A DNA stretch of 64,000 nt from Sphyrna mokarran. Lineage: Eukaryota. A program made the translations under genes and the position numbers. The DNA lies in NCBI GenBank assembly GCA_024679065.1, contig JAGIQG010000014.1:9610001-9674000 (forward strand), written 5' to 3'. This document shows, in pieces, positions 8,936 to 27,299 of this stretch (its first letter is position 1; each line of letters opens with the position of its first letter). A model generated the notes under the pieces. It was not told the DNA's origin, made no database searches, and saw only the letters and a list, made by a program, of their open reading frames with translations.

Positions 8936-9005
8936 ATGGGAAAACCTACTATTTTGTCGATAAAAGAGATTTACTACCCTCTTATAGCAGCTATTGGTGT
9001 CCCTG
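8936..9005 (+). CDS. GPR139-like class A GPCR paralogue A, coding exon 1 (MGKPTILSIKEIYYPLIAAIGVP-G)
   Basis: ATG at 8936, 70 nt open, GT donor (G|gtgagc) at 9006. The peptide matches TM1 start YY...GxP, and the phase-1 intron joins the exon 2 frame. Not in the ORF track. Confidence 0.88.
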
Positions 9006-9138
9006 GTGAGCCATTGTAAATTGTTTTTAATTAGGTTCTGCTCTCTGATTTTTTTTTTGTAACCTTTTGGATGAATTAATTCTTCATATCTCTTAACCAG
9101 ATGCTGGGTTACCATCTAATTTTCTTTCTTTCTTTCAG

Positions 9139-10070
9139 CAAACCTGGTGACCATTGTGATTTTTTGCCGAGGAAAATGTGGCCTTTCCAATTGTATCGCT
9201 TTAATCATGTTTGCCATGGCGATAACAGACCTATCGGTCATGATTATCAATGTGATGATGTATCACATATTCAGTTATCATTTTACACTTTCATTTTTGC
9301 ATTTCACTCCCGTGTGCAAATCTCTGCTGTACATGACAGCTGTCGCACTCGATTTGTCTGTTTGGTTTACTGTCCTATTTACATTTGACCGATTTGCAGT
9401 TATTTGTTGCCAGAGGTTCAAAGCAAAACATTGCACGGTGAGAACTGTGGTTGCTGTTATAACAATATTATCCGTTTTGATCTTTTTAAAGGATATCCCA
9501 TTTTTCGTTGAACATGACCATCAGCAAATACTTAACAATGTGCGGTGGGGTTGCCAGCCAAATGTGACATTTTTGTCATCACCTCGGGGTAGAGCGTTTT
9601 TCTGGTCTCACATATTTTCACTTGTTTGGCTCCCCTTCACTTTAATTGTCTTGTTTAATTCATTGACGATTAGACGTATTGTATTGACAAGCAGAGCCCG
9701 AAGGAAACTCGGGTCTCACAAAACTAAGAAAAACGCTGACCCAGAGATAGAGAAGAGGAGAAACTCAATCATCTTACTCTTTGCTGTGTCAGGCAGTTTT
9801 TTAATGCTGTGGTTGCCATCTATCATTAGTGTTATAATTTCTGGAGTGGTAACTGTCAATTCTTACCAGGGTGACCGCACAAACCTTAAATATATGGCCA
9901 CGGAAATTGGAATAATGTTGAAGTTTTTGAGTTCCTGTCCAAATACGTGTATTTATGCAGTGACTCAGAGGAAGTTCCGAGAGGAGCTGAAAAAATTGTT
10001 TAAATTTCCCTTTGCTTCGATTATGCGGTTTGATAATGATGAAGGAGGTACAACTTCCAGCTCCAGGTGA
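9139..10070 (+). CDS. GPR139-like class A GPCR paralogue A, exon 2 (TM1-TM7 and C-tail); spliced product 333 aa, apparently intact
   Basis: Polypyrimidine tract + AG at 9137-9138 (133-bp intron). ANLVTIVIFCRGKCGLS, MAITDL (TM2), TPVC, FTFDRF (DRY variant), WGC (ECL2), WLP, NTCIY (NPxxY variant), helix-8 KFREE. Family assignment from motif recognition; it is a paralogue, not shown to be the GPR139 orthologue. Confidence 0.9.
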
Positions 10071-10234
10071 GACTTTCGAATTGACGTGAGCAAATATGCC
10101 AGCTTAGATTGAATCTCTGTCTCTTATTTTAGCTATATGAAACTCTTTCACGTAAAGAGTTATGATTCTGTATTCAAATTCAACTTGTGTTCGCCAACAT
10201 GATTATTGAATAAGGGTTTTCACATTTCCTTTTG

Positions 10235-10240
10235 AATAAA
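10235..10240 (+). terminator. Candidate polyadenylation signal for GPCR A
   Basis: AATAAA ~165 nt after the stop codon. Confidence 0.4.
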
Positions 10241-10729
10241 AGCTGCAGCTATATAAATACATTACACATTAAAAGTTAAACGTGCTGGTAGTGAAGTAAT
10301 AACATAATGGGGTATTAAATCACAACTATTTGGTAGTGAACAAAGTGAACTGAGATTTAATTTTAACATGTAATTGCTGGGATGTGATTAATGCACCACA
10401 TCTGAAGGAAGTGAGGTTTGAAATAGTATAACAAATGAGCCAGACTTTGCATCTGCCTCGTAGTCTCAACGGTTGTGATAGGTTAAATGGAGGATCAGAA
10501 ATGTAATGTATTTTCTCAACCAATGGTATCAAGATAAATGCAGGAACTATGGACATGATAGATAAAGCTCAGTATTAGAAATATTTTAGAATCAATCACT
10601 CAGAATAGAATTGGCAATATGAATCTTAATTATGGAAAGCCAACATGCATTTGTTAATGAACAAGCAAAATAAAATTCATTGCATAAGCATTGTTTTAAT
10701 ATGTAACGGAGGGTACGTTTGGGTTGTGA

Positions 10730-24114: not shown

Positions 24115-24185
24115 CTGTAAGACAGAAAATAGAGAAGGGGCGATTAATTAGAAAACAAACATTTTCTGTGTCTGACACAAATATA

Positions 24186-25570
24186 CATCGAGATGCCGGC
24201 CTTGGTCTGGGTTAAACACAATAAGAAGTCTATCAGCACAAGCTTAAATTCCAACAGGTTTATTTGGTAGCAGAAGCTTTTGGAGTGTTGTCTCTTCCTC
24301 AGGTGCCCTGAATAATTGTGTCCACAAACTGGGCATATATAGACACAGACTCGATTTACAAAATAATAGTTTTTTTTTTACAATTAACCAAGTTTTTACA
24401 GACACAGACGATGTGATGGAGAGAGCGTTAAGCACAGGTTAAAGAGGTGTGAATTGTCTTCAGCTAGGACAGTTAGTGAGATTTTATAAGCCCAGGCAAG
24501 TCGTGGGGGTACAGATAGTGTGGCATGAATTCAAGATCTCCTTGAGGCCTTCCTTATATGTAAGAACTTAGCTCTCAGCGCCACTGGGCAATTTTGCATT
24601 AACTAGCGTCACGAAGGCTGCCATAGAGAACGTTTACCCGAAGATCAGAAGATGAATGCCCGTGACTTCTGAAATATTCTCCCAGAGGAAGAAAACACTC
24701 CAGCCTGGTGATGTTGAATGGTATTTGTTCATCCATCGTCATAGCGTCTGCATGGTCTTGCTAATGAACCATGCCTCAGGACATCTTTTCCGGCACCGTA
24801 TCAGGAAACACAGACAACATTGGCAGAGTCACAAGAGTATGTAGTGTACCTGGTGGATAGCATTATCACGTGAGATGATGGTATCTATGTTGATGATCCA
24901 GCACATCTTACAGAGGTTGCAGTGGCAGGGTTTGTGGTGTTGTGGTCACTATTCTCTCGCAGGTTGTAGTTTGCTGCAGACAATGGTCTTTTTGAATTTA
25001 TGCATTTGTTTGAAGGCAAGAAGTGGGGTGTGGGGGTGGCCTTGATGAGATGTCCATCTTCATCAATGATATGTTGAAGGCTTTGGAGAAAATATCTTGG
25101 CTCCTCTGCTCCAGGAGGTATTGGATAATGAAACATTCTCTGTCTGCCATACCCCGTGTTCATCTTCTGAGGAGGTTGGTGCCGTTTTTCATTTTGGTGT
25201 GTTGATCAATAAGTCGAGTGCCATCTACTTATGAGGGTATGTTTCAGTGGCTTTTGGTGTCTGTTGCGATCCTCCTCATCTGACCAGATCCTATGTATAT
25301 GGAGGGCTTGTTCATTGGGGATGGCTTCTTTAACGTGTTTAGGCTGGAAGCTGGAGAAGTGGAACATCATGAGGTTATCCATGGGCTTGCAGTACAGTGA
25401 AGCGCTGAGGTGACCATCCTTGATTGAGATGCGTGTGTCCTCGAATGCAACCGATTCTGCAGAGTAATTCATGGTGAGTCCGATGTGGGATGGAACTTGT
25501 TGATGTCATCATATAGTTGTTTCAGTGATTGTTTACCACGAGTCCAAAGGAAGAAAATGTCATTGATGAA
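24186..25570 (-). mobile_element. Penelope-like element, 5'-truncated (RT C-terminus, decayed GIY-YIG region, terminal repeat), in the intron of GPCR B
   Basis: ORF 25206-25472 (F.DTRISIKDGHLS.SLY.KP.D...HFSSF.PKHVKEAIP..QAL.I.RI.S) is the PLE RT C-terminus; the terminus is shared with the short copies. Confidence 0.88.
24270..24306 (-). ncRNA. Degenerate minimal type-I hammerhead ribozyme in the Penelope terminus (probably inactive)
   Basis: Minus strand GCAC-CTGAGGA-AGAGACAACACTCC-AAAA-GCTT-CTGC: CUGANGA box, decayed stem II, GAAA mutated to AAAA, palindromic AGCT. Confidence 0.55.
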
Positions 25571-26629
25571 AGGATGCTATCTCTCTTCTGGAACAGTCGG
25601 GATAGAATGAACCAAAGTACAGAGATTTAGAGACTGACAAAAGAAGAGATAAATCTGAAAAAGGCCCTTAATGTCAGTGTAAAGTCCAAAAGCAATTTCA
25701 AGCTTGATTAACTTTATTGAATTATTTGAATGAATTTAAGAAATGGCAGATGAAATCAATGAGGTCTATTGGATTAAAATTGGTGCCAAACACTTCGATT
25801 TTTAAAGATCTTCAGGAATTTATACAATAAACTCATGAACGATCTGAAAACAAAAGAAGATTAAGGCAAACGGCAGAAGGAACAGCAAGACAGAACACTG
25901 GATCTACATCCACAAAGGCATTAAATCAGATTACTGGAAAGTGCAAGATGGCATTCCATAATAATTTGTGCGGGGATTATTGTCATTTTCGATTTACGTA
26001 ATCGATAGGGTCGAGAGAAGAAAATTTTAAAATGTACAGATAGATCCTTATTTTCAACAGCTGAACTCAGGATGATTAGAAAATGATAGATAATTTATCC
26101 GCAATCATGAGTAGACACGTCGGATATTTCACTAGGAAATATATTTCCCAAAGCTAAGCTTCAGGTGCTGCGTTTTAATGACAACAACAACGTTCGCAAA
26201 TACTCCTTAGAAAATTAGTATCTGAGTGGGCTTATGGAGTTTAGGCGTTCAGCATGGGATAATTTAGGAAAGCAGTCAACACAATTTAACAAGACTTACA
26301 AAATCTGAACAAATCATTGGCGATCATTTCTATAGGACTGGAAATAAAAGGAAAAGAGCAAAATTAATTGCAGTACTGCAGTACTTCTGCTTATTGTTTA
26401 CATGTCAGGGAAGAGATCATTTCTGTTTCTATTTGAGTGCGTTAATAAAAGACAGAGAAACATCCAAGCGTTTCACCTCATGTAATCCTTACTTAACAAT
26501 TCCAGCAAACATCAAATACATTCTACTATTCATTTAATCGATTAGTGAAGTGCAGCTGCTTCCATGAAAAGGAGAGATTATCTTCCAAAAAATATACTTT
26601 CAAAATTGAATCAAAATATTCCAATTTGA

Positions 26630-26890
26630 CTCCTGACAATATTACACTGACAGAAAATTCTAATTTACATATTTACAGGGATCAGATATTTCATTCTGGT
26701 TAGTAACACTCAATTGTTGAATTCTACATTGACAGATACTTCCAGTCATATATTGTTATTGTGGTCAGTTTTCCAATCTGGTTAGTAATCCATGCTCAAC
26801 ACAATTCAGTGCTGACAGATACTCTCAGTAATATATGGTTAAGCCAGAATTTTGTCACCACACTCATTTGAATTCTATCATGGCAAATGT
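26630..26890 (+). repeat. Degenerate ~82-bp tandem repeat, about 3 copies, intronic
   Basis: 'tgacaga(t/a)a' at ~26649, 26730 and 26813; 'tctggttagtaa' at ~26695 and 26778. Confidence 0.65.
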
Positions 26891-27235
26891 CTCCTGGACT
26901 TCGAAAGTGAAATACTTTGGTGTTGGAATTAATAGATTTGGAAAGAAAAACGTGGCCATGAGACATAAACTAAATTACTTATTTAGATGAAAACATTTCA
27001 CCGTAACTTCATTGCAGCATTAATGTAAGCCTGATTTGCGATTAATAAATAAACTTCAACTAAAGTAAACTTATTGTTACAAAGGTAAATTTCTTGCTTC
27101 ATAAATTTTGTCAATGATTTGGTGATTGCATATCTGAGACAACTAGATCAGCATGTAACATTGCGAATTCGAAAATGAGACCAGAGAACATCTGACCCGG
27201 TAATTTAAACGAGTTCAATAGTTATACTCACTTAC

Positions 27236-27299
27236 CAGGAACACCAATTGTAGCAATGATCATGTAGAATATTTTCTCTGCCATATAAATTGGAAGCAT
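27236..27299 (-). pseudogene. GPR139-like GPCR paralogue B, coding exon 1 (MLPIYMAEKIFYMIIATIGVP-G)
   Basis: ATG at 27299, 64 nt, donor G|gtaagt at 27235. Same position and phase as paralogue A; the intron is 24115-27235 (3121 bp). Confidence 0.85.

Follow-up and report, generated by a model that had tools for sequence, protein, structure and literature searches.

Which receptor family do two neighbouring genes in the genome of the shark Sphyrna mokarran represent, and what might such receptors sense? The genes, here called A and B, lie in a window of 64 kb (the whole stretch of DNA that was analysed, G000:C446:9,610,001-9,674,000 of a 2.77 Gb genome) and encode class A G protein-coupled receptors (GPCRs). 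They belong to a large, clustered family of cartilaginous fishes with turnover of copies, a separate ancestry, a conserved cytoplasmic face and a variable outer pocket. Judged from sequence, the chances are about even that A and B are members of a birth-and-death chemosensory repertoire of these fishes, which is the reading favoured here. Built in the style of a chemoreceptor repertoire but independent in origin, this birth-and-death GPCR family is apparently undescribed beyond automatic names.

The two receptor genes

The coding parts of both genes, with transmembrane helices abbreviated as TM, were placed as follows.

8936-10070, + strand: gene A, an intact class A GPCR gene for 333 amino acids, two exons, no lesion
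8936..9005, + strand: coding exon 1 of gene A, from the ATG at 8936, encoding a very short N-terminus and the first half of TM1; the same exon is found in paralogues
9006..9138, + strand: intron of gene A, GT-AG, phase-1, 133 nt; its acceptor register is common to the family, GPR139 and GPR142
9139..10070, + strand: coding exon 2 of gene A, from the second half of TM1 to the C-terminus, backed by Pfam and the predicted fold
27299-23210, - strand: gene B, a two-exon receptor gene of 322 codons with one in-frame stop
27236..27299, - strand: coding exon 1 of gene B, with the ATG at 27299
24115..27235, - strand: intron of gene B, GT-AG, phase-1, 3,121 nt
23210..24114, - strand: coding exon 2 of gene B, carrying the premature stop
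23861..23863, - strand: the stop of gene B at codon 106, which corresponds to Arg 3.50 in the DRY-type motif; the sole coding lesion detected

The splice models bear out the original prediction of two convergent two-exon GPCR genes with the same phase-1 intron, one intact and one disrupted: A and B lie tail to tail, A is free of lesions and B has a single stop and no frameshift. The word 'divergent' in that prediction applies to sequence only (40% protein identity, 128/318 aligned residues) and not to orientation. Likewise, the shared motifs are indeed present in both genes but are found throughout the family and are not private to the pair. No third family copy was found in the window. Chance resemblance is excluded because of the splice signals, an A-B tblastn E value of 1e-68 and the existence of hundreds of paralogues.

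Both genes match Pfam 7tm_1 above the cut-off. This match, seven predicted helices and the invariance of N1.50, D2.50, R3.50 and Y7.53 in 81/81 intact family sequences identify class A receptors, while P6.50 occurs in 12/81 and P7.50 and W4.50 in 0/81. The structure predicted for gene A is a seven-helix fold with a hairpin in extracellular loop 2 (ECL2), at a predicted local distance difference test score (pLDDT) of 70; a Foldseek search with this model placed GPR139 at rank 5 among peptide receptors, a result that did not discriminate between them. The gene B fragment also gives a marginal TAS2R match (22.6 against a cut-off of 22.2). Membership of the odorant receptors (ORs) was rejected, as neither A nor B matches 7tm_4 and both have two coding exons. 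ORs and TAARs, unlike this family, typically have no coding intron.

Gene A is likely a working member of the family, to judge from its sequence. Gene B retains 61/65 columns that are invariant in 32 intact relatives, the stop itself being one of the losses, and intact members lose 0-5 of those columns in a leave-one-out comparison. Its ratio of nonsynonymous to synonymous substitution rates (dN/dS) to the six closest intact relatives is 0.29-0.36. Because of the near-complete invariant columns and these ratios its loss was likely recent, and gene B is probably a recent pseudogene; the stop could also be a null allele or an assembly error.

Size, clustering and turnover of the family

A search with exon 2 of gene A yielded 2,366 candidates, and all 135 that were scored matched (41-100% identity); 93 of these lie on contig C446 and 32 on C1548 by hand count, and nine contain stops. 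A search with part of gene B gave matches for 150/150 scored candidates (57-100%), mostly on other contigs. Two exact degenerate patterns, one across the splice acceptor plus TM1 and intracellular loop 1 (ICL1) and one in TM3, matched 788 and 954 places genome-wide, with 0 matches for each reversed control. Over the span covered by both listings there are 100 and 83 matches, 55 of them shared, an overlap that extrapolates to about 1,190-1,730 loci.

Four clusters, selected around known matches and amounting to 1,064 kb, were tiled. This DNA contained 42 profile matches, equal to 40 loci once split pieces were merged, of which 25 have an intact exon-2 frame and 15 are broken. All 24 pattern matches within the tiles fall on family loci. 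The TM3 pattern detects 15/25 intact tiled genes and 15/17 of its matches are intact, a capture that implies about 1,400 intact genes, with a wide error. The other pattern detects just 6/25, so that capture differs between subfamilies. Some small contigs duplicate chromosomal copies exactly, and the counts may therefore be somewhat inflated; among the first 100 listed places of the pattern scan, 10 are at short coordinates on small-looking contigs. The family has at least about 950 loci as counted, and likely 1,000-2,000 by extrapolation. Hence, instead of 2-3 copies resolving as 1:1 orthologues, hundreds were counted, and the mixture of intact and dead copies supports the large, clustered birth-and-death family that had been proposed. 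Known sensors in the same genome comprise 60 matches to 7tm_3 (class C) among 75 candidates, 31 of them in one V2R-type cluster on C882, and three matches to 7tm_4 (odorant receptor) at E<=1e-20 among 100 scored.

Some local arrangements were also observed. Copies on C855, C796 and C25 score identically to copies on C446 and C1548 and are probably redundant haplotigs. An array at G000:C335:78,232,583-78,619,558 holds 23 copies of the family in both orientations, spaced by some 14.5 kb, with a 50-nt pattern match that is identical in 20 copies and differs by one base in 3; this array reflects either very recent amplification or an assembly effect. Two small scaffolds carry copies across much of their listed length, from about 0.5 to 8.5 Mb on G000:C960 (19.1 Mb) and from 3.4 to 12.0 Mb on C994 (12.3 Mb). 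From position 27,300 to the window's end at 64,000 and onward to G000:C446:9,755,000, some 120 kb are devoid of family copies in an otherwise dense cluster.

Ancestry and relatives

A protein database search returned 742 matches. The best 120 of these come exclusively from sharks or rays, and almost every one has been labelled 'probable GPR139' by automatic annotation, as the original prediction had stated of many shark loci. A chimaera member (P0141) was found as well. The expansion is thus lineage-specific in that it belongs to cartilaginous fishes, but it spans sharks, rays and chimaera and is not limited to this species.

A 43-sequence family profile found human GPR139 as its best match in PDB (76.5 bits, the next receptor scoring 53.8), where a PDB search with a single sequence failed to reach it. 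The phase-1 intron before N1.50 occupies the same position in 70/70 family loci, GPR139 and GPR142. By intron and profile the family falls in the wider clan of GPR139, GPR142 and GPR210-like receptors. GPR139 lacks the TM3-ECL2 cysteines, which the family keeps. A motif from the GPR139 alignment detected exactly two other loci, each single in this genome: L061, near-identical to GPR139, and L062, which is GPR142-like. A low-scoring class C match is found at 45-170 kb from either locus, as would be expected given that GPRC5B and GPRC5C are the neighbours in human.

Two trees were built, a quick one of 93 rows, for which the 84 unique sequences of this genome plus B and L064 were thinned to 55 at 78% identity, and a careful one of 34 rows. 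The family forms a clade (support 89/86, not starred) whose sister is a salamander orphan receptor (100/99), followed by two single-copy lineages that also include coelacanth and teleost genes (99/97) and then by the amphioxus sequence P0235 of Branchiostoma lanceolatum (97/88; not resolved in the 93-row quick tree). GPR139 and GPR142 are placed apart. Since P0235 groups with the family side and not with GPR139/142, the tree suggests that the split between the two sides predates vertebrates. The idea that the family consists of GPR139 copies was abandoned: an approximately unbiased (AU) test rejects a clade of the family with GPR139 (p=3e-59), and true GPR139 and GPR142 are present at other loci, L061 being the separate GPR139. 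Genes A and B fall in different subfamilies, which are common to shark and ray orders, ruling out that A and B are a recent duplicate pair.

The sister receptor, auto-named 'probable GPR139', is known from the salamander Pleurodeles waltl (XP_069092602), Xenopus tropicalis and the sturgeon Acipenser ruthenus, and shares with the shark family the TM3-ECL2 cysteines and motifs in ICL2 and ICL3. Relatives of the salamander gene form 20 amphibian clusters, each from another named species, plus one sturgeon cluster; there is one 90%-identity cluster per named species, and these are 66-74% identical. Among 25 matches at E<=1e-30 none is from an amniote or teleost. No functional study of this orphan was found in the literature searched.

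Other relatives have been named. GPR210A/B are single-copy orphans of coelacanth, gar and other fishes related to GPR139/142, and the passages describing them contain no shark data (Rinne et al. 2019, PMC6504862). A table row 'Orphan 139-like' is another such entry (PMC5207463). Neither set of passages mentions a shark expansion. Two more GPR139-related orphans, L063 (G000:C805:46.80 Mb) and L064 (G000:C1104:25.01 Mb), were found at one locus each and represent the shark in the two single-copy lineages next to the family; they group with coelacanth/teleost and anchovy/caecilian genes and may be the shark GPR210A/B. Further afield, GPR139/142 are given as sister to protostome W/Y/Famide receptors in part of one study (PMC8557429). 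Nematode srw clusters appear among the family's Atlas neighbours as leads without an alignment, and compared with the srw / FMRFamide-MIP receptor-like clan the expansion in cartilaginous fishes is independent.

Pocket variation and selection

Variation was analysed over 286 codons of exon 2 in 81 unique, intact sequences. Across this set dN/dS is 0.346, falling to about 0.2 on the cytoplasmic face, so selection is purifying overall. For 40 pocket positions, taken from standard class A lists and set after the per-site table had been seen, mean entropy is 2.0 bits; extracellular loops have 2.01 bits and cytoplasmic TM sites 1.01, while the 42 remaining sites of the outer TM have 1.69, less than the pocket (p=0.029). 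Pocket and extracellular loops are thus the most variable sites in the shark. In 22 amphibian orthologues, used as an independent control, the same 40 sites are the most conserved class (0.13 versus 0.42 bits, p=4e-4). A nearly invariant pocket in the amphibian receptor thus stands against some 1,000 shark copies with variable pockets.

As described in part of one report, the Trp/Phe pocket of GPR139 comprises E3.32, F3.33, H5.42, W6.48, R6.51 and N7.39 (PMC7318219). The amphibian orthologues retain F3.33, K6.51, W6.48 and N7.39, close to this pocket, while shark copies have mostly lost the amphibian-type residues. Among the 81 sequences E3.32 occurs in 5, F3.33 in 8, H5.42 in 25, W6.48 in 77 and N7.39 in 7, and R6.51 is outside the six commonest residues at its position, so that W6.48 alone is general in the family. 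Because the GPR139 contacts are mostly replaced, amino-acid sensing, which had been suggested by analogy with GPR139/142, is not simply transferable. Residues 95 and 141 of gene A (3.37 and 4.57) form a family-specific pair of acid and base that is found in 71/81 sequences and is absent from the amphibian orthologue; the pair is likely a structural salt bridge.

Positive selection was assessed with a custom grid site model and a likelihood ratio test (LRT). The LRT statistic is 22 for all 81 sequences. In the B subfamily (32 sequences, B itself excluded) it reaches 180, compared with a maximum of 8.6 in fifteen null simulations, and 18% of sites are above 1; the signal persists when the gene is cut into thirds, each analysed on a separate tree (95, 65 and 23). 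Selected sites in this subfamily comprise 28/91 pocket and ECL sites versus 6/152 cytoplasmic sites (p=1e-8), and 14/40 pocket versus 4/42 other outer TM sites (p=0.007). The predicted excess divergence at pocket residues is therefore found in the entropy and, for the B subfamily, in positive selection concentrated there.

Upstream regions

Exon 1 was located for 47 genes, giving 34 distinct upstream regions in 16 clusters. Putative TATA boxes precede both genes of the window.

8863..8868, + strand: putative TATA box of gene A, 73 nt before the ATG; start site unmapped
27383..27389, - strand: putative TATA box of gene B, about 90 nt before the ATG, aligning with the invariant columns

Four TATA-core columns are invariant in 19/19 aligned family upstream regions, A and B included, and weaker conserved blocks lie upstream of the core in this alignment.

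A possible chemosensory repertoire and its alternatives

The family resembles the repertoires of OR, TAAR, V1R/ORA, V2R, TAS2R and FPR/MRGPR receptors in its birth-and-death clusters, pseudogenes and short N-terminus, and shares with vertebrate chemoreceptor repertoires a variable outer pocket and a conserved cytoplasmic face, without homology to them beyond class A. It is a large clustered family with pseudogenes and has a diversified pocket next to a conserved signalling face, with positive selection in the subfamily of B only. In the proposed scheme, an ancestral single-ligand receptor, which in amphibians and sturgeon apparently remains single-copy and keeps its pocket fixed, would have been amplified by tandem segmental duplication in cartilaginous fishes. 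The pocket (TM2/3/5/6/7 and ECL2) would then have diversified while the G-protein face stayed constrained. Because of that constraint many receptors would share one signalling path. Analogy with GPR139 makes Gq/11 a candidate; in microvillous neurons the path may be Go/TRPC2 instead. Each receptor is predicted to have ligands of its own among water-borne small molecules or short peptides. The chances are somewhat less than even that the family is a further, undescribed main chemoreceptor family of about 1,000 receptors, derived from a GPR139-related single-ligand receptor and present at one or a few per sensory neuron.

Several observations weigh against a chemosensory role. Family clusters are not adjacent to the V2R cluster on C882 or to the ORs on C2 and C1215, and physical linkage to either was rejected. 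Positive selection was rejected for the A subfamily (32 sequences; LRT 2.0), which also shows no pocket excess (p=0.56). A strict O/E (Ebf) site occurs in 2/34 upstream regions, neither of them that of A or B, a count that does not confirm an OR-type promoter. In mouse, OR promoters show enrichment of O/E and homeodomain sites, and some of them of TATA sites as well (PMC3247239). The top-50 olfactory list of the catshark contains no GPCR (PMC11979771); this negative is weak because V2Rs are likewise absent from it. Finally, immune sensors would be just as likely to show a diversified pocket.

Indeed, the family may instead be an innate-immune, barrier or somatosensory repertoire, similar to FPR or MRGPR, that senses microbial peptides, metabolites or irritants in leukocytes, mast-like cells, skin, gut or somatosensory neurons. 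Such a role is the main alternative, though less likely than not. Positive selection that is strong, recent and directed at ECL2 and the outer face fits an arms race as well as it fits odour tuning, and the fold neighbours of the gene A model are peptide and chemoattractant receptors, although this is not decisive. Known expansions of immune and itch GPCRs, however, comprise tens of genes and not about 1,000, and known vertebrate GPCR repertoires of this size are chemosensory. On the other side, cartilaginous fishes are without MAS1-related receptors according to one survey, leaving that role open (PMC8455134), and peptides with aromatic termini are ligands in the wider clan (PMC8557429). A largely neutral amplification by segmental duplication in repeat-rich regions, leaving redundant copies of one endogenous-ligand receptor with counts inflated by assembly duplicates, is very unlikely. 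It would account for the near-identical arrays, the small contigs that repeat chromosomal copies exactly, the 15/40 broken loci and the lack of positive selection in the A subfamily, but not for an overall dN/dS of 0.35 that drops to 0.2 at the cytoplasmic face, for subfamilies common to shark and ray orders, or for pocket-directed positive selection and abandonment of the fixed pocket of the single-copy orthologue. Very unlikely, too, is a reproductive or neuroendocrine repertoire, with a role in sperm or oviduct chemotaxis or in brain peptide signalling. Fast-evolving families are often expressed in testis. Receptors for endogenous ligands, however, keep a fixed pocket, as the amphibian orthologue does, and some 1,000 differing pockets fit poorly with a few hormones, although GPR139, a brain receptor, does respond to Trp/Phe and to melanocortin-type peptides (PMC7318219, PMC8557429).

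Other features of the window

Relics of retroelements are present, with an RVT_1 reverse transcriptase domain at 41599-42866 (+ strand) and a reverse transcriptase-type RNase H domain at 36930-37343 (- strand). Similar frames resembling long interspersed nuclear elements lie at 2329-2937, 18254-18685 and 51770-53582. Positions 44,000-50,000 form a GC-richer island (0.50-0.52 versus about 0.40) in which seven tested open frames have no Pfam match; it is perhaps a decayed mobile element.

Significance

No description of the family beyond automatic names was found in the open literature, a search that did not extend to subscription papers and bioRxiv supplements. The terms 'receptor 139' and 'gpr139' are absent from the searched supplements of PMC8455134, PMC11806052, PMC11589584 and PMC13188829. 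Sharks are described as poor in GPCRs in part of one survey (PMC8455134), and the chemoreceptor repertoire of the catshark is given as 65 genes in a passage of another paper (PMC6368271). About 1,000 receptors under one automatic name change the shark GPCR count, whatever the tissue. The single-copy frog orthologue with its fixed pocket offers an easy entry to the ancestral ligand.

Sharks have large olfactory organs. If the family forms their main chemoreceptor repertoire, it would outnumber the OR, TAAR, V1R and V2R genes of cartilaginous fishes by more than tenfold and overturn the view of shark smell as served by a few dozen receptors. As an immune repertoire, it would far exceed the known innate-sensing GPCR families in size. 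If it is olfactory, a vertebrate smell repertoire comparable in scale to the mouse ORs would have arisen independently.

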